Of a stretch of DNA of 64,000 nucleotides, positions 8,654 through 29,104 are shown in pieces (position 1 is the stretch's first letter; each line of letters begins with the position of its first letter). The notes beneath the pieces are model-generated. The model was not told the DNA's origin. It ran no database searches and saw nothing but the letters and a program-made list of their open reading frames with translations. The DNA is from Clostridiales bacterium. GTDB taxonomy: Bacteria > Bacillota > Dehalobacteriia > UBA7702. Position numbers and translations under genes: made by a program. The stretch is from contig JAXGQJ010000001.1 of the NCBI GenBank assembly GCA_040766505.1, positions 64,836-128,835 of the forward strand. The letters run 5' to 3'.

Positions 8654-9382
8654 CTATTTCCAATACACCTCGACCTGGTGGCCCTCCTGCACACAGAGGC
8701 GGTACCCATATTTATAGATGCTCAAAATCTCTATGGGGGAGGAAGCGCTGTCCGTCTTTAATTTCCGCCGCAGGCCCGCCACATGCACTCGAACCGTACG
8801 GAAATCATCGGTTTCCTGCAGGCCCCAAATGTTGCGGTACAGTTCTTTTGTGCTGCAATCCCGCCACATATTGTCGACAAGCATTAGCAAAAGGTAGTAT
8901 TCTTTCGCCTTTAAAAGCAAGTCCTCTCCATCGAGATAAGCCCGGCGGGCCATAAGATCCATGCGCAAATTGCCGATGTGGATTGCGCTGCGGCTTCGGT
9001 TGCGCTCAATTTCCACCCGACGCAAATGTGATTGGATCCGTAGCGCAAATTCATCAAGGTCATACGGTATGGCCAGGTAATCGTCGCCGCCGGAGCGGAA
9101 CCCTTCCACCATTTTTTCCTTACCGGCCAGACAGGTTAAGAGCAGAATCGGCACGGTGGAGCTTTCCCGAATCTTACGGCAAAAAGCCATGCCGTCGCCA
9201 TCGGGCATGATAATGTCCAGCACGATCAAATCCGGGGGCTTTTCTTTTAAGCAATGTTCCGCCTCGGCCAAGGTATTGGCACAGGCAATGTCATAGTCCT
9301 CCAATTCTAAAACCCTTTTGTTGGTTTTTAGAATATTTTCATTTTCTTCTACCAGCAAAATCTTTGCCCGAATCATATTCAT
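8654..9382 (-). CDS. OmpR/PhoB-family response regulator (receiver plus winged-helix domains).
   Basis: ORF 8654..9448; the likely start is MNMIRAKILLVEENE at 9382. Receiver motifs include DLIVLDIIMPDGDG, and the C-terminal winged helix reads TVRVHVAGLRRKL...YGYRL. Confidence 0.85.
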   Translation of the reverse strand: MNMIRAKILLVEENENILKTNKRVLELEDYDIACANTLAEAEHCLKEKPPDLIVLDIIMPDGDGMAFCRKIRESSTVPILLLTCLAGKEKMVEGFRSGGDDYLAIPYDLDEFALRIQSHLRRVEIERNRSRSAIHIGNLRMDLMARRAYLDGEDLLLKAKEYYLLLMLVDNMWRDCSTKELYRNIWGLQETDDFRTVRVHVAGLRRKLKTDSASSPIEILSIYKYGYRLCVQEGHQVEVYWK

Positions 9383-9384
9383 TC

Positions 9385-10339
9385 CTCCATATTGTGGAGA
9401 TTGGTAGGGCGAAGGATGCGCAGGTTCCCCGTTCCTGTTCGCCGCCAAGCCGGGTCATCGTGCCGTGCGGTTCCACCGTTTCCTCGCAAATGGGGAAGCC
9501 GGGCCCGGTACCGACGCTTAACCCGTTGATGCTTCGTTCAAATACCCGGGGCAAAAATGTGGGCGCGATTCCCCGGTTCGGCTTCCCCGGCAATCGGTTA
9601 CAGCTTTTGGGTACTCCATGTTCATGGCAACCTCTTTCCGCCGTTCTTTTTGCCAACCCGGCGTCGCCGGAAACCGCCGTGATTGGCGTAAGAATTTCAT
9701 GGCAAATATTGAAGGAAACTTCGTTTATAAGCAATTGTTACGGTTGGCGGAAGATTGTTGTTGGCCGGGTCTTTTTCTCTGTCTCCGCTTATGATAAAAA
9801 TACGGCGGCAAGGAAACGATGCCATTAACAAGAAAAATCAATATGCCCATTTGGGTCGGGTGCCGTATTGGGATAGGTAAAAGCAGCCATCAAAAGCGGT
9901 GAAAAGGACAGCATTGAAGCAAAGCGGGAAAGACTGAAATGGCGGAATGCCGGCTTATTTGCGATTCACCGCACCGGCTTGCCGGCAAGCCATGTTGTGC
10001 GCAACATGTTCCCTGGCGCGGAGTTGCCGATGATAGGCGGGCGGCCGATATAAAGGGGACAAGCGCCATCGGACATATTTTATGGGAAAACGCCGGATGA
10101 TGGCGGAAATTCCCGGGGATATAAAAAAACATCATTTGAACGAGAAAATTTCCCCCGCCGACGCGGGCAATTTTTTGGGAAAGATCGGGGATCATAAATC
10201 CGACGGTGCCACCGCCGTTTCCGGTATCGGCGGCCGCATTTTTGCTATTGGGCAAAAAGCCTAAGAGCGCGGCGAAGAGGCAAACAATGCCTAAGAAAAG
10301 AATCGCGCCCGGCGCCTTTTTATGCCAAGGCATATCCAA
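9385..10339 (-). pseudogene. Sensor histidine kinase remnant, frame-broken and internally truncated.
   Basis: There is an N-terminal TM segment (ORF 9890..10339), an H-box-like CHEILTPITAVSGDAGLA and a G2-like GTGPGFPICEETVEPHG. These lie only about 50 aa apart, against the roughly 130 aa I expect, so most of the ATPase domain is missing. The remnant sits directly upstream of the response regulator. Confidence 0.5.
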
Positions 10340-10669
10340 CCCTCCCGCCCCTTTGCGTCAATGCCCTCCACTATATCTTAACGCAGATTATTTTCCCGTG
10401 CAACCGTATTTTGCAATTTTCGACCTTCTCGTTTTCGGTGCCGGGATGGATTGGTTAAGGCCAAAAAGGCAAAACGCCGCAATTTTTGAAAAGCGGCGGC
10501 GCAAGCTTTTCATAAAAGCAATCGGCATAATGGCCATCGTAAGATGAGATAAGAAAGGCGTTTTCTATTGGGAAGAGGGCGGAACAAGGCTCGGCTTAAC
10601 CGATTTAGGAAAATTTTTGTTTCAATATGCATTTAAAAATGGTAAGATAAAAAAGAAGGAGGGAAGGGG

Positions 10670-11121
10670 ATGCAGCTTGGAATTGAAGCGGCGGTCGTCC
10701 GCCTTTTGGTGGGATTTGCCATTGGTTTTGTTATAGGCTTTGAACGCTACAACCGGAAGGAAGCGGGTAGCGCACCCTATGCGGTGGTATGTGTTACCGC
10801 GACGGCCCTTACCATCTTATCGGCTTACGGTTTTGGTGATTTTGCCAATACCCGCACGATGGACCGGCCCGTTTGATTGTGGCGATGGTAACGGGAATCG
10901 GTTTTCTCGGCGCCGGCATGATCTGGAAGAGAAGGGCCATCCACGGTTTAACTTCCGCCGCCAATATTATGGCCGTTACGGTGCTGGGGATTACTGCAAA
11001 TGGCCTTGGCCATTTTGCTTTGGCTTTCGCCACTTTTCTTTTGATTATCGCCGCTCTCTATATTCCACGGTTCTATGTAAGGAGGCACCGGGTGCAGGGG
11101 AGGAAGGCGAAGTGGTTCTGA
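10670..11121 (+). CDS. mgtC: MgtC/SapB-family membrane protein, with one frameshift near 10870.
   Basis: ORFs 10670..10876 and 10873..11121 give FAIGFVIGFERYNRKEAG and IVAMVTGIGFLGAGMIWKRRAIHGLTSAANIM, the characteristic MgtC motifs. RBS GGAGGGAAGGGG lies upstream. Confidence 0.75.
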
Positions 11122-11411
11122 AATCGACGACCCCGTGAAATAGAAAAAACAGCGGAAGAAAGCTTGTTCATCGTAACGCTCTCTTTTGTAACTGTTTCAT
11201 TTTTCACGCTTTGTGGTATGATTGTCTTGGCTCATCCCCTTCTTCCACCTCCGTTGCTTTGTTGTATCGCAAACTTCAGTGTAACCGATTTCGGCTTGGG
11301 ATGAAATTGTACATGCACCGAGCCATTCATTTTACAACTTACCACGGCGGAAAAAATTAACCATAACCCTTGTCAAACGAAATGATTGATATGGCCAACA
11401 GCTACTGTTAA

Positions 11412-11493
11412 GCCGAAGTGATGGAACTGGCAGACGTGCCGGACTCAAAATCCGATTTCACCTTGTGCCGTTCAAATTCCACCTTCGGCACCA
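11412..11493 (+). tRNA. tRNA-Leu (anticodon CAA); the T-stem does not pair as written.
   Basis: Acceptor GCCGAAG pairs with CTTCGGC and is followed by ACCA. The D-loop is AACTGGCAGAC and the anticodon loop is CTCAAAA. However, the 5' T-stem strand (TGCCG) does not pair with TCCAC, and the variable arm is short for a class II tRNA. Confidence 0.65.
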
Positions 11494-12307
11494 AAGGCGT
11501 TGTATACCGTACAGCGTCTTTTGTTTTTTGCCAGCGTAGGGTATGTATTGCCACACTTTTTCCTTCCCGCTTTATTGTAGTTTTTCGCTGTGTTGCATTT
11601 TTTCGGCCCGATGCAACATGAAATACAACACGGGACACGACGCAAAAAAGTCTTTTGAAAGGGCGCTTCGAACTGTTGACAAAGTCCATCCATCAGGATG
11701 GATTTTGTAGTATGGAGAGTTAATATATGCATAATTCAAGTGAAGATGCCACGAAATCGAAGGGAACGTTCTCTGCTGAGTGAAAATCGAATGGCAAAAA
11801 TGCAGCAAATCCAAGGATACTCTCTCGGAAATGAAGAGAGGGGAAATAGCGCAGACCCTGCTCCGCGAAGCATTGGAGAACGGCAAGGCCAGCGAAGAGG
11901 GAATCGATGCCGATGCGGACACAAAAGACTACCCAAAAGTGTGTCCGGCATAGATTTTCCACTCACTTGTTCCGATGGAAGAGGACTTCGATTCGGCGCG
12001 TTAATACCCAAAGCCGCTTATAGTACAGGGTAAGCGGTACCGGCGCCTGCTGCAATGGTTCGGGTTGCTGCAAATAATGACAGACCGTTTTTATTGGCAT
12101 GGCTCGACAGACATGGGGCAAATTTAACGAATGGACCGCACAAAGCGCAATCCCCAAATGGTTCTCACGCATTCCCTTCATTCCCATCAACGAAATCCAC
12201 ATCATCCCCATTAACATCTGAATCTTCATTCTCATCGGCACGCCGAACTTGTTCGTGTATAGCTTTGACCATTTCAACGCCGCTTTCGACCCTCTTGTTG
12301 TGAACGA

Positions 12308-13032
12308 TTATGCCAGCCCGTGTACCCGAAGGAGATCGGTTTTCCCTTTCTTTTGCGGTGCGACCGATTTCCCTTGAAGAAAAACTGCCGACTTTATCCT
12401 TGAATATATCGTCTCAAATTCTCGCCAAAGGCTACAACCAGGTGGGCAATACCTTTTAACATATTTGAGGACAAAAGAATTCATATCACCCTCCCAAGCG
12501 CCAATACATAAGCGAAGGGTTCGGTCTAAGACGTGGAAACCGTATTTTTGATAAATATAGCCCAGCGTCGCGACGGCGCATATACCGCCCGGAACCTTAT
12601 TTGATGTGATTGAAAGGCCGTATGATTCAACCAAAGACTTAATAATAAGCTGGTCATCATTACCCGCTTCACATTTGCCATAAAGATTTCATATGGGAGC
12701 AAAGGCCTGATGTATTTTTGCTGATTGGCGAAAATATCCGCTTCCTGAACATAGTCCAACTCATCGTAAACCATGCACCAGACGGGCGTTTCACGGGAGC
12801 CGGATACCGTTGCGACAATCTCGATCGTATGCTGACCGTTAAAAACGTAATTGATTCCGCTGCGGCGGCTGGCCTTCACGGGGTTGATTTGGTAAAGTCG
12901 AAGTTCTCCACTGTCCGCCGGATATGGGCAGCCGATAAATTGCGCTGGTATTCCTGATTGGATACCAGATTTTTTATGGGTATCTGTTCAAAATGAACCT
13001 TTGGGACAAACATACTCAGGTCTTCCATCATT
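12308..13032 (-). CDS. ParB/Srx-fold (DGQHR-like) domain protein, with one or two frameshifts.
   Basis: The reconstructed peptide is MMEDLSMFVPKVHFEQIPIKNLVSNQEYQRNL...INYVFNGQHTIEIV. The 'IPI..L..NQEYQR' and 'NGQHT' motifs resemble ParB N-terminal / DGQHR domains. ORFs 12526..12879 and 12308..12634 join near 12650. Confidence 0.5.
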
Positions 13033-13100
13033 TTTCCTCCTTGACCGCCGAAAGCACCGTATCAACGGCAGACCGTAAACGGTTTAATTCATTTTCAAGC

Positions 13101-13427
13101 CTATGGCTTAGCATTAAAACCCTTGTAAAATCGGCCAGTACGCGTCCGCTCGATGGAGCTGATCCATGACGGGATTGTGAACACAAGGCTCAGTATTTCC
13201 GCATCCGGGTCATATGCGGGCATATCCTTTACTGAAATTTCAAGGGGCGGCAGGTAATCCTTTTGCCTTTTCTTTTTGGGACAATACTCCTCGTATCCGA
13301 ATACCCGGCATCGCCTTCCGTTAATTTTGCACTTACACGCTGAATATCTGACGGCGACAGCCAAGGCAAGCCTAAGAGATGTTTTCCTGTGAGATTTTAA
13401 TTTGCCGGACAAAATCTTGGGCGTCAA
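13101..13427 (-). CDS. Hypothetical protein of the island; the reading continues in another frame to about 13036.
   Basis: 108-aa ORF. Its downstream tail, LENELNRLRSAVDTVLSAVKEEK, ends next to the start of the ParB-like gene. No family was recognised. Confidence 0.3.
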   Translation of the reverse strand: MTPKILSGKLKSHRKTSLRLALAVAVRYSACKCKINGRRCRVFGYEEYCPKKKRQKDYLPPLEISVKDMPAYDPDAEILSLVFTIPSWISSIERTRTGRFYKGFNAKP

Positions 13428-13866
13428 CTCCGGAATCTACCCTTGAAAGCAAAGTCAATGGCATTTGCGCTGCCCGTATTTATCCGACGGGCTGCATGTG
13501 AAATACAGTACTCTTGCAAGGCGCTCGCGGGTGTGACGAGCAGTTTCTTCAAAAAGTGGTTCGGCCAACATTTTGGGCTAACCTCATTCCTTGTGTATTA
13601 GTTTTGTCCGGCGGCATTATGGGCGCCGATAATTTGTTCCATTATCTTTTTCCGATTAAATACCGGCGTGATTCGTCCGTTATATTATGGCAGCCAGTTG
13701 GTTTGCCTTATCCACGCGACCGCTTCCTCCCGGCTACGCAGGAGAATATGGGCGATTTTAAAGGGAATTTGGCGACGGGTGCAAATCATCGCATGCGGTT
13801 AGCCGTCAGGATGCGTTTTGTTCCACACGCAAGAGGCTCGCGGCATCGTCTTGAATGAGGGTTTCT

Positions 13867-14327
13867 TCAAGCTGTTTTCATCATCCGGTGAAAGGGGCGG
13901 GATGAGGTTCTTGTTCCTCGTCGATTTTCAATGTATAGACCGCCATATTCGGTCATTTTGCCCCTCATTCCGTAAGTGGGCATGAACTCTGAAATGTAAA
14001 ACTGCGCGATGCCTTCATTTTTAACGACTTCGCCATAGATGCGGTACGAATAACCGTCCATCCAGTCATCACACATACCGCGCGCAAGTTCCGCACCAAC
14101 GCTTTGCTGTGGAGCTCAAAGCATTGTGACATCAAACCGCGCTTGCCGTAGGCGGAACGCCTTTGGTCATCCCGGTCGCTGCGGAGGATAACGATTGCGC
14201 GGTTTTCCGGTTGACGAAGCAGCAGTATGTATTTTGGATCGCCAATGGCGTGCAGCGTCCTTTTGTATATCCGTATCATCTTTTTCAGGTCGATCAATAT
14301 AGCCGGGCGGCCGGAATCATCGCTCAC
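13867..14327 (-). CDS. Hypothetical protein, a paralogue-like partner of 14483..14959, with one frameshift near 14070.
   Basis: ORFs 13965..14327 and 13867..14076 join as ...LRAVC/DDWMDGYSYRIYGEVVKNEG. The layout parallels the neighbouring protein (IRIYKRTLHAIGDPKYILLL.. versus ITFNNHKVSLNTACLKRLPDVEYVQIL..). Confidence 0.4.
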
Positions 14328-14482
14328 GGGTATTTACCTGCCTCCTTCTGCGACTGTACGGCGCTATCCGCCGGTTCTGCCGGCGGTTCATTATTTACGC
14401 TGAATACCGTGTAACCTTTGAAGATATTCACCTGCAGCCGTTTTCGGTGTTCCTCCACGGACAATCCAAACTGGTTTCCACT

Positions 14483-14959
14483 CTATGGGGAACACAGGGG
14501 TACGGAATAACGCGGGCTTTCCGCCTTCTGCAACAAGCGCTGGAAAATCTCCGTCGAGGTTAAGTCAAAAGCGAACAGGTACTCATCGCCGCTGCGGATC
14601 AGTTTGCCGAGCAGCTTATAACGGTAATCCGGATTCCACCCCATTAAATCTATGATCATGGCGAAGAAAACCCGGCAGGTAATTTGTTTCGGTTTCCTTT
14701 TTCCGCCGCTTAAGGTACACCAAATGAACGCGTCTTTTTCATCCTCGCTGCTAGGTCGAACGACGAGCTTATGCTCATTCTGGTTGATAAGGATTTGCAC
14801 ATACTCCACATCGGGCAGGCGCTTCAAACAAGCGGTATTCAGCGAAACCTTGTGGTTGTTGAATGTGATTGAAGGCTCGCGGAGATGGGCAAAGAATTCA
14901 CCGCGAACCACCTGATACCCGTCATAACTAAAGGAATCATCCTGTATGATTTCTTCCAA
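14483..14959 (-). CDS. Conserved hypothetical protein typical of Clostridia integrative elements; function unknown.
   Basis: Intact 158-aa ORF (MEEIIQDDSFSYDGYQVVRGEFFAHLREPSITFNNHKVSLNTACLKRLPDVEYVQIL...). I recognise it as a recurrent element-borne family but cannot name its function. Confidence 0.5.
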   Translation of the reverse strand: MEEIIQDDSFSYDGYQVVRGEFFAHLREPSITFNNHKVSLNTACLKRLPDVEYVQILINQNEHKLVVRPSSEDEKDAFIWCTLSGGKRKPKQITCRVFFAMIIDLMGWNPDYRYKLLGKLIRSGDEYLFAFDLTSTEIFQRLLQKAESPRYSVPLCSP

Positions 14960-15008
14960 ATGTGGCGCCGCCGGTTCGGTACGGGCAGTTTATCCGGTAT
15001 CGGGCGCC

Positions 15009-16857
15009 TTATATTCCGTTTTCATCGTCCGTGCCCCCTTGCTCCATATCGGAAATCATTTGTTTTATGCTGCCGGAAAGGGTTTCCGCATCGGTTACAT
15101 TGATATCCGGCGTACCGTTGTAGGGTTGCCCCTCCACAGCGACATTCCACATGCCGTCCTTGTCGATTGCCGCCAATTCCCGCGCCTGTGAATGGCGGTA
15201 ATAATTGTTGCCGAAATTGCCCGCCCAGGACGGCGGGAAAGCTACGACGGTATTTTTACGGTTCGCGTTCACGGGATTTCAGACATTGTCACTAAAATAA
15301 CCGTCAGCCGCCATGTCGGGAATAAAGATTTCGGTATCCCTCATATCGAAAATCACAACGGATTCATTGTCTTTTTGCCTGCGCACGCCCCGGACACGGT
15401 ACCGTAGTTCGGGATCCCAGCGAATATTTCATATAACGTAATCAAATATGCCGCGCCGCTGATCATCGCGGATTGTAATTTGCTTTGTTGATCTTTGCCC
15501 ACCTGACGGCGTTCATTCGCTTAGCACCAGGGACGGACGGCAAGCAAATGTTCATGGGGATGAACCAGCATCTCTGTCCCAGCTCTTTCTTGAATTTTCG
15601 GATACATTCCGTGCCGACCAGATGTTTTCGGTTGAAAGTGTAACGCACAATTTGCGGGCGGTATCAAGGGTGAGGCAGGTTACCTCGACGCACAAATCAA
15701 AATCACCGGACTGCGCCTTTACTTCAAGGCTTTGGTTCCGGTTTATCCGCCATATACACTTTCGGAGGCTATGCGATAATCGTCGGCGCTGAAAGCCGCC
15801 CAGCGCGGATTGATGGAAACAAAGCCTCAGCGCTCCTTCCGTAATCACCTTCAGTTCGGGCAATATGCCTTTGTTCCCGTATTTGGCATTGCTTATCAGG
15901 CGCTGAACCGCAATGAAATCATCCCGCGAGACGATGGCCTCATGGTTGTCTTTCCTGGTATACTGGTTGTGGTTGTTCCGGTTTTTTCGCGGCGGAGTGA
16001 GTCAAGGCCATCATCATGTCTTACGGCGAGTATGTCCCCGCCAATGCCGTTCGTTTTGCAATATTTGCAATATTGAACCGGGCGCCCATGCGGTGTTGCC
16101 CTTTTTTGTCATCCGTTTCAAAGACGTAAGCATTTCCGCTATTTGCCGGCAGGTGCAGCCGTATAAATACATAAAGAAAATCAGCCGTACGGTTTTCGCT
16201 TCTTCCGGGTTAATGATAAGGTTGCCGTCCCCGTCCTGGTCATAACCGAGCAGCGGCGGGGTCAGAAATATACCGCGCCGGAACCGTTTTTCAATGGAAT
16301 CATTGGCGACCCTGCTTTTGATATGCGATTCTTCCTGCGCCAATGTGGACATAAAGGAAAGGCTCATCTCACTGCTGTCATTCAATGTATAGAGACCGCC
16401 ATTTCAACACTTCGGCGGTTGCGTAGCAGCCAGTTGCCGCACATACCGATACAATCGACGACATTGCGGGCAAATCGAGGAACATATTCCGTGACAATCA
16501 AGTCAATCCTACCGGCTTTGCAGTCGCCCCAGCCATTTTACAAAGGCGTCGCGATGCTTCAGCGATGTCCCCGGATCTTCCCTCGTCGCTGTAAATGTCA
16601 GCAGTTTCCGGATTCTTGTGGCGGTTCAGCATTTCCGTATAATAGCCTTTCTGCAACTCGAACGACGACGTTTGCCGCGGGTCGTCGGTGGACACGCGCA
16701 CGTAGAAGGCCACCCGTTTCTCTTTTTCATCCTCAAAAAGGTTCTCCTCTGGTGTTGCCGGTATATTATCAATATCATCAGGAATCGCGCTTTGGTATTT
16801 CGCGCGTATTTTCTTTGCGGTTTTCGGCGTCTTTTTCGCCGGTTAGTTCTCTTGCAT
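15009..16857 (-). pseudogene. Large serine recombinase (resolvase catalytic domain, recombinase domain and zinc-ribbon region), multiply frameshifted.
   Basis: The catalytic N-terminus reads VAFYVRVSTDDPRQTSSFELQ (16498..16713). The recombinase domain reads FMSTLAQEESHIKSRVANDSIEKRFRRGIF...NPEEAKTVRLIFFMYL (16014..16385). Further fragments run down to about 15009. The ATG at 16857 follows a GGAGGG RBS. Confidence 0.7.
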
Positions 16858-17074
16858 TGCGAATCCCTCCGAATGATAGAATATTGTTATTATGCGGGGG
16901 TTTCGCCAATAAAGGGAAATTCACCACCGGAAGTAAACCACTTTACCGCCAGTTAATATTCCGGGAATCTTTTGCAGCTTCCCAAAAAATAGGGGTGAAG
17001 GCCGGCTGTTATCCTGAAGCTTTTCTTGAATTTGGAAGCCACTCGAAATGATGCGCCTTTCATAGTTGTTACAA

Positions 17075-17337
17075 TCATTGATCAGGCACGCAAATCGCAG
17101 TAGTATTCCGCAGCGTCGTTGGTTTGAATTTGCCGCTGAGTAAGGCATACACCGTAACGCCGAGCGCATTGGCAATCAGGATCAGGATGGAAAGGCTTGG
17201 CTTTTTAGCGGCGGTTTCAATCGGGCTTATGTACGGCACGGACACATCAATCTGCTCCGCAAGCTCAGCCTGGGACAACCCTTTCGCGTGGCGGATTTCC
17301 TGATCCTCCGGCCTATGTGCTTGAAATTGACTGACAT
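17075..17337 (-). CDS. XRE-family helix-turn-helix regulator, with one frameshift near 17290.
   Basis: The peptide LSQAELAEQIDVSVPYISPIETAAKKPSLSILILIANALGV is a classic HTH_3 motif, and upstream residues IRHAKG can be read in another frame from the ATG at 17337. Confidence 0.7.
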
Positions 17338-17369
17338 AAAAACAATCACTCTATTGTGTATGATGTTTC

Positions 17370-18403
17370 ATTCAACACAATGGAGGATATTTTGAGCACT
17401 CGGTGCCGGCATTTTTGCATCGTTTGTGGTGCTTTTATACTGTCCCTTCACGCAGGATATCAAGGTAGGCGGCATAGGGAAAATGTTCTGTTGCGCTGCT
17501 CGCCGGAGTTTTGTGTCAAGGATACTTATTTCACAAAGCCGCCGGGCAAGAATCGGATACCGCCTTAAATGTGGTATCCGGCTTGGCCGCCGTCTTTTGG
17601 CGGCGCGGCCCATCCGCTGATAGCGGCGATATTTTTATCGTGGAGCGCCGTCAGTTTATCAATGGCTCACGATGCGACCACGGCGGATTCGTAAATCGCC
17701 TGCGGAAAAATTTGATCCACCGCCCATAGTTCCCGTTTCCGCGCACTTCGCTCATGCTGATCCGTAATATTCGATTGCCGGTTCTTTTTCAGGAAATACG
17801 AAATATATAGCACGCGGGGGTTGTCGGCACGCCTTTGTCCATCGGGTATAAGGTGATGAGCAATCGGCCGATACGTTCCGTTGCCGTCAAAAACAGGTGT
17901 ATGGTTTCAAACTGGTAGTGGATCAAGGCGGCGTGAATCAAAACATCAAGCGAATCATCACTGTTGATGTATTTTCTAGGTCGGACATTGCCACCGTCGT
18001 ATCTTCCGGCGTCGGAGGATAAACCTGGCATCCTTCAGTATTGCTGCCCTGGCCGCCGATCCAGTTTTAAGAGATAGCGAAACTCACCGGATTTTTTCTC
18101 TATCCTGGACGCGCCATCAGCACAGTGGCTGCTTCCTTAATCGGTCGGTTGCAGGCAGTTCGTTCAACCAGGTAATCGCAAAATCGGTGGCCTTGATGTA
18201 GTTGGTCACGGCGGCGACATGCGGTTGTCATTTTCGTTAATTAACGGGTCAAGCACATCCTCAGTGTGGCCTGGGTTCCTTCTGCTCTGGGACGGCATCG
18301 CGCTTCTCGTGGACATACGTTGATATAAACAAATTAACATTCGGAATCCACCAACGATACGCTTCAGAAACCAGCGCCGATCATATGCAGAAAAAGATTT
18401 CAA
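17370..18403 (-). pseudogene. Fic/DOC-family protein, multiply frameshifted.
   Basis: HYQFETIHLFLTATERIGRLLITLY corresponds to the Fic motif HPFxDGNGRxxR read across a frameshift. Downstream, YISYFLKKNRQ and a C-terminal HTH-like part are readable in shifted frames. Confidence 0.65.
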
Positions 18404-21400
18404 TTGATACTCTCAAATGCGTGATAGCTTCAAACCCAAAGTCATGAGTTCCTTCGGTAGTATTTCAATCTACACTCCCCGTGGGGGGGGTGACGGTGGA
18501 ATGGTGTCCGGCGGTATACCCAATTTCAATCTTCTCCCCGCGTGGGGGTGACAGGAAAAAAAGTTTTTTGTTATGCCTGCTACACGTTTAATCCTACTCC
18601 CCGTGAAGGGCAGCCATATAGGACGTCGTCCGTACCAGGCATCAATTTCAATCTTTACTCCCCGTGGGGTGACTGCGGGGGCTTCCTCTTTCGGCGGTGC
18701 TTCCGATTTCAATCCACCACTCCCGTGGGGGGTGACGAAGTATCGGGGCGTGTGGCACACGGTTGCGGTCAATTTCAATCCACACTCCCGTGGGGAAGAT
18801 GACCGCTTGCTGGGCGAGTTTATGATCGGCGATGATGTTTCAATCCTTTCTCCCGTGGGGAAGGTGACGGAAAAGATCAAGGGAAGTTTTCTTTGGTGCT
18901 GGATTTCAATCCGTCCCCGTGGGGGAGTGACAAGGGATTCACCCTTAATTTGTCGAAAATGTGTTATTTCAATCACGCGCTCCCCGTGGGGAGTAAAATG
19001 GGAAGCGCTCTGTCCGGTGGTGGGATAGATTTCAATCCACACACTCCCCGTCAGAGGTGACGTCAAGCTGGCGATTCTTCACCCTTGACGGCTGCGATTT
19101 CAATCCACCTCCCCGTGGGGGTGACTTGATGTGTTCTTCCGCTTCCTCTGGGTTTTGCATTTCAATCTGCTCCCCGTGGAGGTGACATACGTCAACGCTT
19201 GGTGGGATGAGTACGAGAGATTTCAATCCACACTCCCCCGTGGGGGAGTGACGGCCCGGTGCGATCAAAAGGCCAATAAGGTGGACAATTTCAATCCACA
19301 CTCCCGTGGGGAAGTGACATGAAAAATGAGTCAAAACACAAAAAACTATAAAATTTCAATCCACTCCCCGTGGGGGTGACGGCTTTCAAAAACCGCATCG
19401 CTTCTTCGGATTTCAATCTACCTCCCGTGGGGTGACTTGTCTGCTCGTACAGGCGATAAGTTTGCTCGGATTTCAATCCTATCCCCGTGGGGGGTGACTT
19501 GCTATGTTCCTTCCTGCCTGCAGCGCACGCGAATTTCAATCCACCTCCCCCGTGGGGGTGACGCGAGCAGTCGGCGACGGCGACGATGACCATTATTTCG
19601 AATACACTCCCCGTGGGGGGTGACGTCTTTCGCGAAACGGTTGTCATAGCCGACTTTATTTCAATCCACGCTCCCCGTGGGGGTGACGTGAGTAATGAAA
19701 CGGACTGGCAAGTATTCGGCGAATTTCAATCCACACTCCCGTGGGGGGGTGACCAGGCGAACTTTGGACGGCAATTAAGAATGGCAAATTTCAATCCACA
19801 CTCCCCGTGAAATGACTATAAACACGCTCTAATCAAGGTTATGAAGGATTTCAATCCACCACTCCCCGTGGAGGGGAGTGACTTTGTGTTTTGACTCATT
19901 TTTTCATCCCTCCATGATTTCAATTACACTCCCGTGGAAGATGACGATGATCGTTAAATAAGCACATCCCTTGCCCATTGCATTTCAATCCACACTCCCC
20001 GTGGAGAGTGACGGGCGCAAGCGGCTCCTGCCGCTCCTGGTGTTGACGAATTTCAATCCACCACTCCCCGTGGGGGGAGTGACCTGTTTTTCTTCTGCTT
20101 CGGATTGCCCATATTTCTTTTCCAATCCACCACTCCCCGTGGAAGGCCGGCGATCAAGCAGGGCGCTCTGGACGGCGCTGATATGTTCAATCCCACCGCT
20201 CCCCGTGGGGGTGACGGTGACGGCATAACTATCCGGTTTCTTGTACCACGACCAGCTAATTTTACTCCCGTGAAGTGACGTTGGGCGGCGACGGCAGCCC
20301 CGCTGTCTCAATTTCAATCCGCCTCCCGTGGTAGCTCGCCGATGGTGGCGACTCTTGGACTTTTTGGCGAATTTCAATCACCATCCGTAAGTGACTTTAT
20401 TGATCTTGCAGCTTATCCGCGAGGCGTTTCGTCCATCGTCAGTGTGCTGTTATATCGGCAAAAACAATGGGCGACATAGTTTTATTCACACTCCCCGTGG
20501 GGGGGCTGACCGAGCGGTAGCGCTTTTCCACCGCGACCACGTTATTTCAATCCTCCCCCGTGGAAGTGACGAGATACGCGCTTTCACAAATTATATTCAC
20601 AGAATTTCAATCTCTGCCTCGTGAGAAAAGTGACGGAAACTCATAAATGTATTGCCGTCGATGATCGTTATTTCAGTCTGCTCCCGTCTCGGGCGCGGCT
20701 TCATCCGCTCGTACAGCGATGGGTTTGCTCAGGATTTCGTCTACTCCCATTGAAGTGACCTCCTGTTGGCAATCTCCCCGCTGACACGTTCCAATCCCTG
20801 ACTCCCGCGTGAAGGTGACTGATTGATGCCCAACGTCAAGCTCTCAACGAATCGCACAATCCACCATACGTGGAAAGATGACTACAAGATCGGAGATTAA
20901 TCCTTGAGCAATATTTTCGTCCTCCCCGTGGGAAAGGCGATAACGGCTTTCCATCCATGGACGGCCATTCAAATGGTACAATCCTACCACTCCCCGTGGG
21001 GGAAGTGACATTTATGTCAGCTTACCTGCCGTTGACTTTTTATTTCGTCCACAACCATTATGATATTATCTCTCAACTGCGCTCCAATCAAGGTTACGGG
21101 GGAGGTGACCTCCCCGTGGGGAAGTGACGCGACATATGATCGGCAATGGGCGAACTAGCCACACGGGGAGTGACGCACTCCCCGTGTGATGAAGCAGCTA
21201 TGCGGTGAACGTACCCGTGGTCACCAGCCGGGGAAGTGACGCACTCCCAGTGGGGAGTGACACGCAGGCAATCGGGATTTGTATAGATCGGTCAACGGGG
21301 TGACACTCCCCGTGAAGGAAGTGACAAGAATGAGGGCTGCTACCTGGATAAAATATCTGTCAGGAGATGACATACAGTAAGAGAAGTGACAGGTTGGTGG

Positions 21401-21513
21401 GCTGCAAAAAGTCATTTTTATGGGGGAGTGACACTCCCGTGGGGTGACGCTGAAGGGCAATAATACGATGCGCTGGATAGTGATGCCAAGAGGTGAAAGG
21501 CATACGTAGTGAC
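18397..21513 (-). CRISPR. Type I-C-like CRISPR array of about 47-49 units with a period of about 65 bp.
   Basis: The consensus repeat on the transcribed (minus) strand is GTCACTCCCCACGGGGAGTGTGGATTGAAAT. Its GTC...GTGGATTGAAAT layout matches known I-C repeats and it has the same orientation as the cas operon. Spacers are about 28-35 nt. A degenerate terminal repeat lies at 18397-18428, and repeats become increasingly degenerate from about 20230 toward the leader. Confidence 0.9.
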
Positions 21514-21650
21514 AGCAACGTGTTTGCTTCTTTTTGGCTAATATGGGCCGGTTTACTTGTTGTTCTTCTAAAAATCCGTGATTGCTCATTTCCTTTGCTT
21601 TTTTAGGGACGATATATGTATTTTAGGGTGCGAGAACCCTGAGATTTCTG
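21514..21650 (-). promoter_or_regulatory. Putative CRISPR leader: an AT-rich spacer between cas2 and the first repeat unit.
   Basis: This AT-rich stretch of about 140 bp has no ORF and lies between the cas2 3' end and the array. That is where the leader sits in the I-C loci I know. Confidence 0.5.
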
Positions 21651-21945
21651 GTCGCTTCGCTGCCTCAAAATCAAGGGTTTCTTTCATGTTTAAACCGACC
21701 TTCGCGCCGATGTGTTGTTGTTTGGAAGTTACCTTTCGATAGTAAAAGCGGAGGCTATCCCGTTCTTTATCGATCAGGCCTTCCAGAATATATTCATTCG
21801 GCTTGCGCCAGCGGCAGGGGCGAGACGTTCAAACACTGAATTTTCAGACACTGAATTCATCAATTTTCGCATTGTTTGGCGACTTTTTGCAGACGTCTTT
21901 TTCCTCCGTTTCTGTGCTGACGTCATGGATAATCAACATCAGCAT
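21603..21945 (-). pseudogene. cas2: Cas2, frameshifted; the 3' end is uncertain, somewhere between about 21603 and 21655.
   Basis: The ATG at 21945 gives MLMLIIHDVSTETEE... Shifted frames then give NSVFERL, LIDKERDSLRFYY and HIGAKVGLNMKETLIL, matching Cas2. Confidence 0.7.
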
Positions 21946-21954
21946 ATCGACACC

Positions 21955-22974
21955 TCATTTCCATAAAAACGGGGGATAGCCGTCAAGATCGCCCCGCAGG
22001 AACCTGGCCAGCAACATTGCCATGCATAGGAACTAGGCCCCCGGGATCTTTCCTTTAAAGGGTGTAAGATTTCACTCCTTTTTTCTTTCTTGCCAGCCGG
22101 AAAGCACCGTCACCGCGTTTCATCGTCCATCTCCGCACAGCGCCATTTCTTTTTTATGAAAGCCCTTTGCCTGTATTTCCTTTTTGTTAATGAGTGTAAT
22201 GGCCAGACGCTCCGCCAATACGCCGCGCATTTCTTCATTAGATCAAGCCAAAGAAGCCCGCCCCGGCCGATCCCGATGAAGGAAGCCCACATAGGCATCG
22301 GGGCCAACGCTTTCAATGCGGCGGCACAATCAGCGGCAAGCAATGTATAAAGGAAAGACAATAGGGCATTGAAGGAATCGAGTGGCGGCCGCTTATTTCT
22401 TCCTCGAAAATAGAAGAACTTCCTTTTGTTGGAGGATGAGCTGATCTAGTTCATGTGAAGCCAATAACCGCCGCCTTCCCTTCGATGCCCCGCAGCGATT
22501 CTAAGTCGCCGCAGGCCTCGCCATTTTTAACAGGTCGGAAAGCCGAAGCGACGCGGCTTTGACCTTCTCGTATCGATACGCCTGCGCCAGTCGCGCATAG
22601 CGCCGCTCAAAATCCATTTGGCATTGTAAATCTTGCCGACAATAAAATTTTCGCGATGAAGCAGCTTTTTCCGCGCTGTCGCTATGCCGGTACTGCTCTT
22701 TGCGCAAAGTGACATTGCCATGGCTTTCCCCGACGACCCGCGCGAGAAAGCGGCCGTTCGCCGTTAAGCTCAGGCCGATATTGCGCTCGGCACAAGCGCC
22801 CATGAGGCCAGGGCTGGCGCCCCGACATAGCCGAAGGTGACGATGGTATCAAGATTGTGGAGGGGCAATTTGCATCTTCGGCTCCTCTTTTTTGGTGAGC
22901 AGCCACGGCTTCGCCCTCAGGCCCAAATAAATTTCGGGGGTTATGACATATAGGGTGTTCAGCAATTTTTTCAT
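21955..22974 (-). pseudogene. cas1: Cas1 (I-C type), at least four frameshifts.
   Basis: The ATG at 22974 gives MKKLLNTLYVITPEIYLGL. Further Cas1 segments are MGACAERNIGLSLTANGRFLARVVGESHGNVTLRKEQYR (22501..22803) and a C-terminal ...LRGDLDGYPPFLWK* ending at 21955. Confidence 0.8.
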
Positions 22975-22986
22975 GGATTCAGATGG

Positions 22987-23623
22987 CTAGAAATGTAGTC
23001 GGCGACCTTTTTCCTCATTGAGCTGCGCTTGAGCAAGTATCGCTGAAACAGGAACGGCAGAAAGCCGCCGGTTTACCTTTGGCGTATGTTTTTCTTGAAA
23101 AATGGTGCATTTCCCCGGCCATTTGTGCCAAGCAATCCCGCGATTCCTGTGTAAATACCCGCCCGTGCGGCGCTTTGTTTCGCCATAATAAAGGTATCCT
23201 TTGGCAACCGTGCAGGCCAGCATTTCTTCAAGGCAAATGGCTTGGGCACAAAGCTGCAAATCGTCTTCCCGCCCCTTTTTTGGGTTTTCCTCTTTTGTAT
23301 TCCACGGGGCAAAGCAAATATCTGCCCGCTTGCGCCCAAGAGAACGCCATTTTCGTCCTGATAAAACTCCACTACATCCTGATACCGGAAAGTCCCACAG
23401 TTCGCAGGGAGGAAACCGCCAGGCCGCCAATGGTGAGCAACCCTTTTCGCTTTTCTTGAAAGGAATCGCCGTGGACTCTTTCGTAGAGAATCTTCCCTTC
23501 CGTGGTGAGTAGATTTTCCTGCACCACTGCCTTTCGATATGGATCAAGGCCCACTGGCGGCGACGGGGCAAAATGCTGTATGCCGGAAAGGCAGATAACC
23601 GCACCTCTTCAAAATCAGGTCAT
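22987..23623 (-). pseudogene. cas4: Cas4 (RecB-like nuclease), at least three frameshifts.
   Basis: Its start overlaps the cas7 stop (ATGA at 23620-23623). Recognisable segments are RRRQWALIHIE, VEYKRGKPK-like EYKRGKPKKGR and DDLQLCAQAICLEEMLACTVAKGYLYYGETKRR. Confidence 0.75.
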
Positions 23624-24510
23624 TTTATCAGCCGCATTACAGTCACTCCCGGGGGGATTCGGCTTTCATCCAATTCTACCCGATAATCGCCGTATTTTCT
23701 AGCCGGAAGGTCGTGGATTTTCTCGACGTGGATTGTGTCGAACAATGTATGGGCGGGCGCATTGCCGAAGATGCTTTCATGTTGAAAGACGATCAGCTCT
23801 CGCACGGCCATTTTTCCCCTGGCGGCGGAACGGTCTTCTTCAAACATGTGGATGATGGCTTCCCAGAGCAATTGCAAATCTTCTTTGGAAAAACCGGTGG
23901 ATTTTTGCGATAGATTGGCGGATACGAAACCCTCCGCCCGGTAAAGGCCATAAGGAACCACATGTTTTCTACCCATTTCCGTCCCTTTTTTGGCGGCGTC
24001 CTCCTCTTTGGTGATGGCCACCCGGGTGATGGTCACCTCCCTTTGTACGATCGGATCGATGCTGCGGCTGAAGCCAATCTGCACCGGCCCGCGGATCTGA
24101 CCGCAGTTGAGGGCTGCCTTGACGAAGGTGACCATCACCGCGCCAAAGGTGCGGATATCGTAGAAATTTTGGCACATATAATCGCGGATTTTCCGGTCGA
24201 TCTCAGGATCGCTCTTTTTTAGGTCTATAATTTTATTCTCTTCGGTGCCGAATTTGCTATAGGCCTGTTTGTCCAGAACATTGAGGGGGGTTCTTTCTTG
24301 AATATAGATACCATAGCCCTCTTCGCCTTCTTTGACGGCCTGGACATAGTTGCGGATTTTTCGTTTCAAACAGACGTCGGTAACGATGCCGTGGCCGGTT
24401 TCCGGATCGATTCTGGGCATATTTCCAGCGTCGGGATCGCCATTGGGGTTGCCGTTTTCCACATCGTAGAGAATGACAAATTCGTAACGGTTTTTAATTG
24501 CTGTGGCCAT
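23620..24510 (-). CDS. cas7: Cas7 (Csd2, type I-C); the only cas gene with an intact frame.
   Basis: 296-aa intact ORF beginning MATAIKNRYEFVILYDVENGNPNGDPDAGNMPRIDPETGHGIVTDVCLKRKIRNYV, the Csd2/Cas7c signature. Confidence 0.9.
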   Translation of the reverse strand: MATAIKNRYEFVILYDVENGNPNGDPDAGNMPRIDPETGHGIVTDVCLKRKIRNYVQAVKEGEEGYGIYIQERTPLNVLDKQAYSKFGTEENKIIDLKKSDPEIDRKIRDYMCQNFYDIRTFGAVMVTFVKAALNCGQIRGPVQIGFSRSIDPIVQREVTITRVAITKEEDAAKKGTEMGRKHVVPYGLYRAEGFVSANLSQKSTGFSKEDLQLLWEAIIHMFEEDRSAARGKMAVRELIVFQHESIFGNAPAHTLFDTIHVEKIHDLPARKYGDYRVELDESRIPPGVTVMRLIK

Positions 24511-26277
24511 TGTTTTTTTCCTCCTTGTCCTTCTTTACAAAAAAGGCTTTTTTCTGATGGTAATAGCCGAGGATGAAAATACCTTGGTCGTTCAAAGACA
24601 GGTGCGCGGGAAAAGGCGCATCCTCTACGCTTAGCTTGTCCAGGAGATGCTGGATTCTGCGGTCGCTGACATAGCCATACGTAGCCTTGGCGATGTGATG
24701 ATTGGACAGTCGCAGCAAAGTGGGGAAGATGCTTTCCGGATTGGCACAGGCCGAATCGAAATAGCGGTCTTTGATGGTGGCATTGAGGCCGGGGCTCGCA
24801 TCTTCCTGCGCTTTTTCTAAAACGGCGAAAAGCCGCCCCAGGGTATAGGCTTTATTTTTGCTTTCTTCGCTTAAAGACACCTTCAATTCCTCCTTATATT
24901 TTTCTTTTTCTTTGCGGAGCAAAAACGCCTTGATGATGGCGGCTTTGCCGCGGTTGATGTCCTTTTCCGCCCGGATGCGGAGGATTATGCTGTTAAACAG
25001 CAATTCGGGATAGGAAAGACCGCCAAAGATGGCGCGCAGCACCGCCCCGGCCAAAAGGGGCGAAGCCGCCTTTTCCTTGGCCTTGGGGGGTACCGTTTCC
25101 AGCATCAGCTTCCATAGGGGCAGATAAGGGGGATCCTGGGGCGCTCTCTCAATCTCCAAGTCGCGGTAATGGGCACGGATATTTTCGATAAAACTGCCGA
25201 AGGTATTGGTGAGAAAAAAGCGTACCGATATTCTGGCCACATTGGGAGAGAGACCCAAAACATAGAAACGGGTATCAAGGTCAAGCCGATCACGAAAATC
25301 CTCCGCCGGCGCGCCGGCCATGATTTTCTGGAAAAGCTCCCGAAGTCCGGCTTCTACCTCCCGATCCACCATAAGATCTCCGCCGTCCTTTTCCTCTGTG
25401 GGATTGAGGCAAAAGGTAAAGAGGTCTTGATATAGCGTGGAAGGGCTCACAACCCAATAAACAAGGTGGTGTCGCCGAAAACTTGGGTGTTTTTGCCGCG
25501 CAAAAGATGATTGAGAGCCGTCGTATACGCAAAGGCGGCATATTCGCTGACAGGGGCATTGCGCCCTTAAGTCCTTTAACTGTCCCGCATACATAGGATT
25601 CATAGGCATTGGCATTGAAGGAGACGATGGAAGCGCCGGTTCCCTGGGCGCCCCTGACCCGTTTAATGCTTGGATGCAAGATGGCGATGGGGGCCTTTTC
25701 CCCTGTGATCAGACATTGCATTTCGATCTTGCTACTGTGGGCGGCGCGATGGCGCTCCCAGGCGGCACGCAGGGCCGGGTGGTCGTGGGCATAGCGGTCG
25801 CCGAGCATAAAAACAATATTGCCGCCGCCGGTCAAGGCATCCAACTGTTCCTGAAAGGCCGGAACTTTGGCAATCAAATCCGGCTGCCAGCGCGCTAAAA
25901 AGGACAGGAATTGCCTTGGCTTCCGAGGATCTCCCAATCGCTTTTAAAAGCTCTTGGTGCAGGGCTTGAAAGGCAGCGAAGCATTGTTTTGCCCTTTGGG
26001 GCTTGCCTTTTGATCCGCACACAACATAGGTGGAATTGCCCCATAGGAAATTGGCGCTGATGTCCGCCGCTTTCTTTTTTACTTCGGTAATTCCAGCGTT
26101 TAGAGGATTTCACCGTCTTTTGCCCCGCAAGACGCTGGTCTTTTGAAGCAAGCTTGCGGCTCTCCTTCCGCCGTAAGCTGGAGGGCAAAGGAAATGTCGG
26201 CCTGCGCCAGCCGGGCTTCGAAATCTCTCCGACCCCGTCCGGAATTTCGCAATCCTCACCAGAGATTGCAATATCAT
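24494..26277 (-). pseudogene. cas8c: Cas8c (Csd1) large subunit, at least four frameshifts.
   Basis: The ATG at 26277 gives MILQSLV..., a Csd1-like start. The C-terminal 373-aa ORF 24494..25615 is intact, and fragments 25290..25937, 25732..26022 and 25895..26188 cover the rest. It sits between cas5 and cas7, as expected for I-C. Confidence 0.75.
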
Positions 26278-26932
26278 CTGACCACCCGCAATCCTTGAGA
26301 TCGAGGGTGCCATTGGTGAGTTGGGCGCGAAAGAAGGTGGGCCGGATATCCGGGGATTGGAATAATCCATATCGAAGAGCATATAGCCCAGATCAAAATA
26401 CTCCCGGATGCGCAGGCTATTTCCTCCTCTTCCAGCAGGCAATAAACTGGGGAATTCGCGGCAGCCAAAGCATGGCTGGTGAAAACGCATTGCCCCGACC
26501 GCAAGTAGCGCAAGGCAATGTGCCAATGCTTTTCCGGCGCTTCTCCCCGGGCCGGCTTTGTCCGTGAGCTCGAAGTGGGCTTCGATCACGAAGCCGGACA
26601 TCCCGCAGCACCAAAACTGGCCCGCTGCTGAATGGCAGTGAGTGAGTATAGATGGGCTTCACACTTTTTACCATGGCGCTTCGGACATTGAACGCCGAGA
26701 GTTGTCGCTCCCACCTCATTGCGGCGGATATTGGTGAAGCGAATGGGAAAACATGGATTTTGTCGATTTTCCAGCGCAGCGCCGGCTTCCAATAAATAGC
26801 CTCGATCAGGCCCCGGGCCGCCGACGGCGTCATGACCTCATAGCTTACCCTCTCCACCTTCATCTCCGGGCGGCTGAAGAGGGCGTATTCTCCCCAGGTT
26901 TCAACCCTGATTCCGTATCCCAATGGTTTCAC
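26274..26932 (-). pseudogene. cas5: Cas5c (Cas5d) pre-crRNA endonuclease subunit, at least two frameshifts.
   Basis: The N-terminus is [61 protein letters not shown]. Shifted frames then give [12 protein letters not shown] and [14 protein letters not shown]. Its stop overlaps the cas8c ATG. Confidence 0.8.
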
Positions 26933-26969: not shown

Positions 26970-29104
26970 TTAAATAAAAACACCCATTCCGTCATCCACC
27001 TGATCGTCGAGGCCGGTTTCTTCGCTATAGCGGCGCAGATCGACCAGGATGGAAAGCTCTTCATCTAGGGCTTCAATGGCCTGAATTCCCAAAAGCGCCC
27101 GGTAGGGTTTGTCATAGACATTGACAGTATAAAGTTGCATCTTGCGGAGCAAATCACGGTTGCGTTCCCCGTTTCGCAGCCTTTCGGCGAGGGCCTTGGC
27201 CTCCTGATCCCGAGGGATAAAGACCGCATGGGTGGCGTCGGCGATAAGGTGAAAGTTTTCCGCAATCGTAGCAAAGGGAAAGCTGCCGCCATTTTGGGCG
27301 CCTTCTTCAAAAGCGTTGACGATCCCGTTGGCGTCCAGACCTTCCCCGGTTGCCGTATGGAGCAGAGTGAAAAAAGCGTCAATGGCTTCCGGTGCGGCAA
27401 TGTCGTCATATGTTGCGATGATGCTTTTGCCCACATGAACCGGTCGACGGAGCATGGCGGGAAGATGGTCTCTATAGGCCGCCTCGGGCCGGAAATGGTA
27501 AACCGGGCCGCTCTTCCGTTTGCCCTCCCGGTTGCAGCGGCCCGCCGCCTGAACCAAAGAATCGATGCCGGTTTCGGCCCGGTAAACAGCGGGAAAATCC
27601 ACGTCGACGCCGGCCTCGATCAAACTGGTGGAAATGACGCGGCAGTGGAGATCCGCCTGTAAGCGCCGCCGGATCTCCTCTAAAACAGCTTTTCTGTGGG
27701 CCGGAAACATCAGCGTGGATAGGTGAAAAACCCCTTCCCCTTTTAGGCGTCGGAAGAGGTTTTGGGCTTGCCTGCGCAGATTGACGATGCAGAGGGCTTG
27801 CCGTTCACCGTTGAGGCGGTCGGCCAAAGCCGCATCGTCCAATTCGCCTAAGTTGACGAATTCGGTGCGTCTAAAAAAAGCATACATTTCCGCCGTATTT
27901 TCGCATATTTCTCTGGCATTGATCTCCGGCGGAAAATGTTTGTCAAGGCGGGGTTGGGTGGCGGAGCAGAGCACCGCCGTGCTCCCGTAATTGTAGACGA
28001 GCTCGGCGATGGCGCGGACGCAGGGCAAAAGATAGGGATGGGGAGCATTTTGCGCTTCGTCGAAGATGACGATGCTATTGGCGAGATTGTGGAGTTTGCG
28101 GCATTTGGAGGGGCCGGTTGGCAAAGACAGATTCAAAGAACTGCACCGTTGTTGTCACGATGACGGGCATATCCCAGTTTTCCGTCGCCAACCGCTGTTT
28201 GGTCAAGTTTTCGTCGGCGTCGTCGTATGCGAAGTTGGCATGGTGCTCCAGCACATTTTCCTTTCAAGATGGATTTAAACACCGCCGCGTTTTGCTCGAT
28301 AATGGAATGGTAGGGGATTACATAGACGATGCGTTTCAGCCGATGTTTTTTGGCATGTCGCAAGGCGAAGGCTAGGGAGGAAATGGTCTTTGCCGCCGCC
28401 GGTGGGGACGGTGAAGTGAAGAGACCGGGGTTCCCAGGCTCGGTCAAGGCAGTTTTGTAGTATGTCCGAGCGCTTGCGTGGTTGATATTGAAGTCAGCGG
28501 TTCAAAACCGGCGATATATTGTGCGAGTTTGGGCAATTCGGGATTGCGATCGAACGCCGCGTTCGGTCGGCGGAGACATGAAGGCTTCCGTATCCAAGAA
28601 AGTCCGCATCGACCAGGCAGGAGAAAAGCATGCGTATATAAAATGAAAGGCTAAAGCCGCCGTTTCCCAGCGGCTTGATCGGGAGATTTGTTTTGGGTGC
28701 GGGGATTTCCAGTTCCGTGCAAAAGGCGCCATAGTCCGGCAGCGCTTTTTTTAGCCGCCCCGCCAAGGTAGGCTCTCCTCTCAGACTGGCCAGGGAACCG
28801 CCGTCGGGCAGGCCGCGCCATGGTGGCCTGCGATGGCATAGGCATACAACCGCCCCAGGGGTTTGATAACGGTTCGCTTCACGGCGCCGGCGGTGGAATG
28901 GTCCTGAGATTGCTGCCGCGGATGCGTTTTTGGAAGGGTTGGGAATACTTGCCAATATCGTGAAACAAGCCGCAGCGCCAGGCATCCTCCTCGCCGAAGC
29001 CGTCACCAAAACGTTTGGCCTGCGCGGCGACGGCTCCAGATGGGCTTTTAGCGTCTGTTCTTCGCCATCTTTCCCTGATAGCGGGCGATATAGGTTTCGG
29101 TCAT
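26970..29104 (-). pseudogene. cas3: Cas3 (HD nuclease plus DEAD/DEAH helicase), at least four frameshifts in the N-terminal half.
   Basis: The C-terminal 388-aa ORF 26970..28136 carries VIFDEAQ and helicase motifs. The Walker A region PTGGGKT is readable near 28400, and the HD motif LFHDIGKYS near 28960. The ATG is at 29104. Confidence 0.8.

Follow-up and report, generated by a model that had tools for sequence, protein, structure and literature searches.

The type I-C locus and its CRISPR array

The 64,000-nucleotide stretch of Clostridiales bacterium DNA analyzed here (the window, with positions counted from its first letter) contains a type I-C CRISPR-Cas locus with a single CRISPR array, in which six consecutive units near the leader have a repeat without the segment that encodes the 5' handle of the CRISPR RNA (crRNA). 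The array, its leader and the associated genes are all on the minus strand. The assignment to type I-C, already made in a reading of the sequence without database searches (below, the sequence-only reading), was confirmed by gene content. Pfam and tblastn placed genes for Cas3, Cas5, Cas8c/Csd1, Cas7, Cas4, Cas1 and Cas2 in this order on the minus strand, and the seven Cas proteins of another I-C locus (L001) matched that strand collinearly from 28898 to 21700. The signature genes cas8c/csd1, cas7/csd2 and cas5c thus form one operon with cas3, cas4, cas1 and cas2, with Pfam matches to PF09709, PF05107, PF09704, Cas3-like_C_2 and PF01867.

Within the operon, cas3 (26973 to 28898; Pfam Cas3-like_C_2 and Helicase_C and a tblastn match to residues 60 to 722 of L001 Cas3) is represented by its helicase/C-terminal part and is broken into several frames. 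It is followed by cas5c (26110 to 26932; Cas5d family, PF09704, tblastn), with one frame change, and by cas8c/csd1 (24497 to 25937), which is split over three frames, with PF09709 on two open reading frames and tblastn pieces in frames -3, -2 and -1. The gene cas7/csd2 (23623 to 24534; PF05107, E = 9.5e-105) is intact, and its product is 100% identical to an NCBI database protein (P0002); it is the last clean gene before a block of noisy sequence that takes in the rest of the operon and the array. In this block, the tblastn alignment of cas4 (22990 to 23619) alternates between frames -1 and -2, reflecting repeated frame switches; the translation of cas1 (21958 to 22974; tblastn match to residues 1 to 343 of L001 Cas1, Pfam Cas1 on a 100-amino-acid fragment) is interrupted by eight in-frame stops and, over long stretches, resembles no homologue; and cas2 (21700 to 21945; translation and tblastn) has two in-frame stops.

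The end of cas2 lies about 150 to 190 bp from the nearest units of the array, and the 150 bp separating the two can be aligned to leaders from three further I-C loci (L001, L002 and L012). The leader of the window (21514 to 21660) has in common with these three a TTCGCACC-like motif, found here near 21625 to 21640, and a leader-repeat junction of ..TTGCT followed by GTC (in the window, ...CGTTGCT followed by GTCAC), and it adjoins the first repeat on the cas2 side. Because the leader homologous to I-C leaders starts at 21514, the units preceding that position are leader proximal, as had been proposed from sequence alone; the proximity of cas2 and a degenerate partial repeat (ATTTCAATTGATACTC; 18397 to 18412) at the opposite, trailer end agree with this orientation. 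As an aside, I-C leaders just downstream of cas2 share an inverted-repeat motif, GTGCGAA...(AGTGAACA)...ATTCGCACC, located at 11935 to 11975 in L001, 3487 to 3530 in L002 and 8897 to 8945 in L012, of which the window (about 21625 to 21640) keeps the second half; this motif may act as a terminator or form a regulatory hairpin.

The array itself (18462 to 21513) comprises about 49 repeats at periods of about 56 to 73 (mean near 64). Units 0 to 25 (18462 to 20083) have the transcribed-strand consensus GTCACTCCCCACGGGGAGTGTGGATTGAAAT and a repeat error of about 13%, and units 26 to 41 (20118 to 21096) keep the canonical handle at a repeat error of about 30%, with three or four of their spacers being collinear copies of the spacers at 19126 to 19847. 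By definition (PMC8524198), a type I-C repeat is about 32 nt long and has a 7-bp stem preceded by a 5' overhang of 2 nt and followed by a 3' tail of 11 nt (UGGAUUGAAAU/C), the source of the crRNA 5' handle, and the consensus of units 0 to 41 shows this same overhang, stem and tail. No part of the canonical repeats is read more faithfully than the handle, ATTTCAAT being correct in all 26 of the best ones. With at most one mismatch, ATTTCAATCCAC was found at 18 places in the array, none of them past 20555, and nowhere else in the window (chance expectation, 0.4). Since no unit of the window is an exact match to even the 19-nt consensus core ACTCCCCGTGGGGAGTGAC, the canonical repeat and the variant repeat described below are both to be read as reconstructions. 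In short, the spacing of the array is regular, its repeats are 13 to 30% off consensus (none exact) and three or four spacers are duplicated; the divergence of the repeats is attributed to sequencing error because the flanking genes are equally damaged. No Rfam CRISPR-DR family scored above threshold.

Six leader-proximal units with a replaced repeat tail

On the basis of per-unit edit distances, the array falls into two parts. In units 0 to 41 (18462 to 21071), ATTTCAATCC is found at a distance of 0 to 3 (5 in one unit), and GGGGAGTGAC in the same position is at a distance of 4 to 7. In the six units 21097 to 21128, 21165 to 21194, 21230 to 21261, 21297 to 21325, 21362 to 21390 and 21422 to 21448, the relation is reversed, with the handle at a distance of 4 to 6 and GGGGAGTGAC at 0 to 2, so that the 11-nt handle-encoding tail is absent from all six. 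The switch from canonical to variant is abrupt, and the variant block (21097 to 21448) extends to the leader: a spacer at 21449 to 21488 joins it to the first repeat (21489 to 21513), which touches the leader and is too degraded to be classed as canonical or variant (distance 5 to the handle, 4 to GGGGAGTGAC). About seven handle-less units had been proposed from sequence alone, with ends at 21128, 21194, 21261, 21325, 21390, 21448 and 21513; all of these ends were recovered, and six of the units stand, with the seventh, at 21489 to 21513, being the unclassifiable first repeat.

Read on the transcribed strand, the variant repeat is GTCACTCCCCACGGGGAGTG(C)GTCACTCCCC, in which the first 20 nt and their hairpin are kept. 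The part replaced is exactly the 11-nt 3' tail (TGGATTGAAAT), and the substitute, (C)GTCACTCCCC, duplicates, in direct orientation, the ~10 nt with which the repeat begins; the exchange therefore coincides exactly with the 11-nt 3' overhang, or 5' handle, by which I-C repeats are defined. Since the periods within the block (66, 67, 64, 65, 58 and 65) are the same as those in the rest of the array, the replacement is length neutral. The periodicity and the shared GGGGAGTGAC both survived a unit-by-unit comparison of the six repeats, and the six spacers between 21128 and the first repeat showed no significant match to one another or to other spacers of the array, in line with the earlier statement that they are all different. 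The variant consensus previously proposed, with a GC dinucleotide at its center, was accurate as to the replacement and less so in its detail: being reconstructed from noisy repeats, it includes a GC that just two of the six units (21165 and 21230) show, the other four reading GGGG(A)GTGAC followed directly by ACTCCCC. The true variant could be 29 or 31 nt long, since the CACAC-like context is the most deletion-prone one in this sequence. The oldest variant unit is shorter, its repeat being AGGTGAC+CTCCCCGTGGGGAAGTGAC, and the G-run of the preceding spacer (21072 to 21102) overlaps its "left arm."

Canonical I-C (Dvulg) arrays, including those of L001, L002 and L012 and the repeats of Bacillus halodurans and Streptococcus mutans (PMC8524198), have the same cas3-cas5c-cas8c-cas7-cas4-cas1-cas2-leader-array order and share with units 0 to 41 a 31- to 32-nt repeat, the 2-nt overhang, the 7-bp stem, an 11-nt tail ending in GGATTGAAAT and a leader ending in ..TTGCT. 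The leader-proximal repeats of L001, L002 and L012, however, are all canonical, whereas in the array studied here six have the tail swapped for the repeat's 5' end. The only degenerate repeat in those three arrays is at the trailer end, and such trailer repeats resemble the variant in that the 3' part is off consensus and the 5' part is kept (e.g., the last repeat of L012, GTCGCACCCTACACAGGGTGCGTGGTGTTTTTGG); they differ from it in being single units at the trailer end that drift into the flank, as opposed to six units at the leader end with one specific replacement. The variant units therefore do not qualify as a degenerate terminal repeat, and the trailer has its own partial repeat (18397 to 18412). 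The psi-repeats of CreTA-like elements were likewise dismissed as a match, since in these a single pseudo-spacer is flanked by one or two degenerate repeats, in contrast to six regular units continuous with an array.

A closer parallel is provided by inherited blocks of repeat polymorphism in type I-E and II-A arrays, which also form a contiguous variant block starting from the leader and preserve repeat length despite a distal change. In adaptation of these types, new repeats are templated by the leader-proximal one, and their length is fixed by a ruler-like measurement from motifs inside the repeat. The inherited blocks known to us are made of point variants, and we know of no description in type I-C of the replacement of a whole handle segment with continued acquisition; a literature search, too, yielded no handle-replacing, propagated repeat variant in I-C.

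Sequence quality and the origin of the variant block

The sequence-only reading had taken the letters of this region as reliable, which they proved not to be. From about 9500 to 23600 (about 14 kb), the window has an error level like that of raw reads, with all genes fragmented and stop-free runs of at most about 170 codons, versus up to 900 elsewhere in the window. The edges of this block are sharp, with a response regulator (8657 to 9454) and cas7 intact on either side, and outside it only occasional frameshifts were seen (e.g., in cas8c, cas5 and cas3). Over the 806 reference bases of the 26 best repeats, 42 bases are substituted, 28 inserted and 38 deleted (13%); these errors cluster in C4/G4 runs and in CACAC context, and the substitutions are mainly A>G, C>T and G>A. 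Between about 20100 and the leader, in the half that holds the variant, about 9 of 31 repeat positions are off consensus (about 30%). Because the boundary is sharp and lies inside an operon, the errors are rich in indels and unrelated genes are equally damaged, we consider this an uncorrected long-read stretch and not biological decay, one that seems to bridge an island varying between strains. Local error far above that of the rest of the contig and frameshifted genes, the marks of a long-read artifact, are thus present regionally; on their own, they do not account for the variant. Nanopore-like assembly error matches what is seen in its rate (13 to 30%), its preferred contexts, its dominant A<->G and C>T changes and its frameshifted genes, and it would explain the noise, but not a repeated, specific and length-neutral 10-nt replacement.

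Beyond the trailer end, the noisy block holds minus-strand genes resembling those of mobile elements (12000 to 18400), all of them frameshifted: a large serine recombinase with Resolvase and Recombinase domains in three fragments (15555 to 16842), an XRE-type helix-turn-helix (HTH) protein (17078 to 17350), a Fic/DOC protein (17792 to 18034) and a DUF6551 protein (12529 to 12987). A tRNA-like sequence ending in CCA (…GGACTCAAAATCC…TTCGGCACCA) was noted at 11405 to 11495 and could be the integration site of the neighboring element; a tRNA scan of the noisy block found nothing, ARAGORN giving no call at this sequence, perhaps as a result of sequence errors.

The spacers point to structural problems as well. 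Three of them recur in the same order, those at 19437 to 19469, 19754 to 19787 and 19817 to 19847 being equal to those at 20701 to 20733, 20941 to 20976 and 21072 to 21102, respectively, and a fourth pair (19126 to 19158 and 20396 to 20429) is weaker. At 3.2 sigma, a shift of about 20 units (about 1.26 kb) stands out over all other offsets, and the spacers lying between the duplicate pairs have no detectable similarity. At one copy of the 19817 spacer, the next units are canonical, and at the other (21072 to 21102), the first variant unit follows directly. Such a pattern could come from a chimeric read, from a genuine duplication of a segment or from the tandem joining of two haplotypes with old spacers in common. 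At 20430 to 20455 (within 20396 to 20479), where a repeat is expected, no recognizable one is present (edit distance, 14 of 31); this is the worst spot of the array and a candidate junction, should the sequence be chimeric. A separate pair of spacers, at 19319 to 19352 and 19883 to 19916, derives from overlapping protospacers in reverse-complement orientation (ATGAAAAA(A)TGAGTCAAAACACAAA), as would fit an array that sampled one target repeatedly, on opposite strands, a pattern seen in primed adaptation. Genuine acquisitions would be expected to match protospacers with a 5'-TTC PAM; a BLAST search of the array for phage protospacers gave chance-level matches only, the spacers being too noisy for protospacer matching.

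Taking all of this together, we favor the explanation that a real, mutated first repeat was copied by later acquisitions, and we assign it a probability of roughly 0.45. A contiguous variant block that touches the leader fits the copying of the first repeat at every acquisition, and what would be expected of a propagated first repeat is what we found, namely, one block counted from the leader, an intact leader-side repeat end and a conserved length, with the caveat that the leader-touching repeat is unreadable. Random error was rejected because the handle is the best-read part of the 42 other repeats and the same 10-mer appears in six consecutive units at constant length; the error modes observed (homopolymer indels and transitions) cannot repeatedly convert ATTTCAATCC to GGGGAGTGAC in six units while 42 keep the handle.

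Several observations weigh against this explanation. The variant lies in a raw-read-like block with fragmented genes, and the repeat error is twice as high in precisely the half of the array to which it belongs; the intactness of cas1, cas2 and cas4 cannot be demonstrated; the assembled array is probably chimeric, mixed-strain or rearranged; the GC dinucleotide is confined to a minority of the variant units; and the repeat touching the leader is the unclassifiable one. Moreover, no second copy of the array or the repeat was found in about 186,000 species genomes, JGI metagenomes or 5.8 billion proteins: the 19-nt repeat core gave only single chance matches in genome and metagenome contigs, neither this canonical core nor the variant was present there as an array, and a Cas7 search returned, besides the window's own protein, only relatives no more than 75% identical. 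Among the I-C loci used for comparison, the longer, top-scoring matches L001 and L002 are unrelated I-C loci with clean arrays, and L012 is a relative with 73% Cas7 identity. The earlier suggestion that acquisition continued after the variant arose stands as a plausible inference and not as a demonstrated fact, given the raw-quality sequence, the signs of misassembly and the lack of an independent copy.

A simple mutational path to the variant was not found either, which also counts against a real event. A 44-nt deletion followed by a 31-nt ruler duplication predicts a composite repeat at the block boundary (21072 to 21128) that is absent, and the sequences predicted there by an inversion between the hairpin arms or by quasi-palindrome template switching are absent as well. 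Nor is the variant block supported as a noisy second copy of units 22 to 27, since the mean z score was about 0 and only the pair 27/47 reached about 2, as far as the noise permits such a comparison. Hidden remnants of the handle at the spacer ends (CCACAC before 21165 and ATTTTTAT before 21422) were also considered and set aside; they would make the true spacers about 23 nt long with the period still at about 65.

The strongest competitor is an artifact of assembly or consensus, in which one or a few long reads formed an uncorrected bridge over a strain-variable island (a mobile element and the array) and, in the leader-proximal part, a chimeric read or a mis-registered mixed-strain consensus created units that do not exist in any genome. 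This would fit the contrast between stop-free runs of at most about 170 amino acids across 10 to 23 kb and up to 900 elsewhere, the scrambling of cas4, cas1 and cas2 next to an intact cas7, the rise in repeat error from 13% to about 30% from about 20100 on, the collinear spacer duplicates at a 20-unit offset, the absence of an independent copy among the genomes, metagenomes and proteins searched and the location of the variant in the half of the array that is noisiest and of suspect structure. We regard it as a serious rival, if less likely than a real variant; against it, no known read or consensus error swaps a well-read 10-mer for a specific other one at constant length in six consecutive units and spares 42. 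A fold-back or inverted chimera, for its part, would put GGATTGAAAT on the plus strand, where it is absent, and the spacers show no reverse-complement symmetry, there being no antidiagonal signal among them and the borderline reverse matches of three variant-block spacers being at chance level. Remnants of nanopore or PacBio adapters did not exceed shuffled controls, although this is a weak test.

The spacers 20701, 20941 and 21072, which repeat 19437, 19754 and 19817 in the same order, lend themselves to another explanation, namely, that a real variant was imported by recombination or gene conversion from another array or strain or that the contig joins two haplotypes, X contributing units 0 to 28 and Y contributing units 9 to 21, the variant block and the leader. 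The different sequences following the two copies of the 19817 spacer are what two arrays sharing old spacers and differing at the leader end would show. The variant block would still have had to grow by acquisition in strain Y, however, so that a haplotype join changes the history of the assembly more than the mechanism, and against import speaks the absence of a second array or repeat type in the window and of a donor array in the collections searched. We think this origin is quite improbable. Genuine mutational decay, with a dead adaptation module and array whose odd units are degenerate remnants, would agree with the stops and frame changes in cas1, cas2 and cas4 and with the increase in repeat degeneracy toward the leader, but it would not create the same substitution six times. 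In addition, the damage ends sharply inside the operon, at the cas7/cas4 junction, extends over unrelated recombinase, Fic and HTH genes and is dominated by homopolymer indels, all of which suggest technical error, and ordinary I-C arrays (L012 and L001) have their degenerate repeat at the trailer end. Decay is thus very hard to credit.

Proposed propagation of the variant and its predicted consequences

If a mutated first repeat was indeed copied, the sequence of events may have been as follows. The leader-proximal repeat would have been rearranged such that its first 20 nt, with the 2-nt overhang and the 7-bp-stem hairpin, were kept and the tail was exchanged for the repeat's own start. Cas1-Cas2 would then have duplicated this repeat at each integration and, with the leader-repeat junction and the hairpin part intact, could have added at least five or six more spacers, each flanked by the variant, at constant length and period. 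The conserved repeat length would fit a ruler-type definition of the second integration site, which is established for types I-E and II-A and is extended to I-C by analogy. That a first repeat of type I-C lost its 11-nt handle segment and yet supported at least five to six further integrations is a specific proposal that we put forward as doubtful.

Transcripts of such units would be without the handle, which Cas5c recognizes just downstream of the cut and which anchors the crRNA in Cascade. Folding put the canonical hairpin at -12.4 kcal/mol. For the variant with GC, a hairpin at the 3' side is the minimum-energy fold (-13.6 kcal/mol; 58% of the ensemble), and for the variant without GC, the 5' hairpin is kept. 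The two competing hairpins suggested from sequence alone thus both appeared in the folds, with the 3' one winning only when GC is present, in which case the new tail would compete with the canonical hairpin. BhaCas5c chiefly recognizes the 3' overhang and the three nucleotides that immediately follow the cut, SmuCas5c being more tolerant, and the crRNA handle is held by Cas5c in Cascade (PMC8524198). As the variant turns UGG... into CGU... and eliminates the entire handle, processing and loading are probably impaired; crRNAs from the variant units would probably be poorly processed or poorly loaded, and the newest spacers would then provide little or no interference.

Given the raw long-read quality of the region, the variant is unconfirmed and must be verified by accurate sequence before it is used as a basis for further work. 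If it turns out to be an artifact, it is a warning that lightly covered long-read arrays can show structured-looking "variants" and that claims at the level of single repeats need accurate reads. If it is real, the locus would represent a natural separation of function, in which adaptation runs on while crRNA biogenesis and the loading of Cascade are deprived of the handle. The requirements of the I-C integrase at the leader-distal repeat end would be bounded in vivo, and I-C adaptation would need no more than a leader, the two-thirds of the repeat with the hairpin and a ruler for length. The array would, in that case, keep taking up new spacers of probably no use to its own Cascade, illustrating one way for immunity to be lost silently at the newest end of an array.

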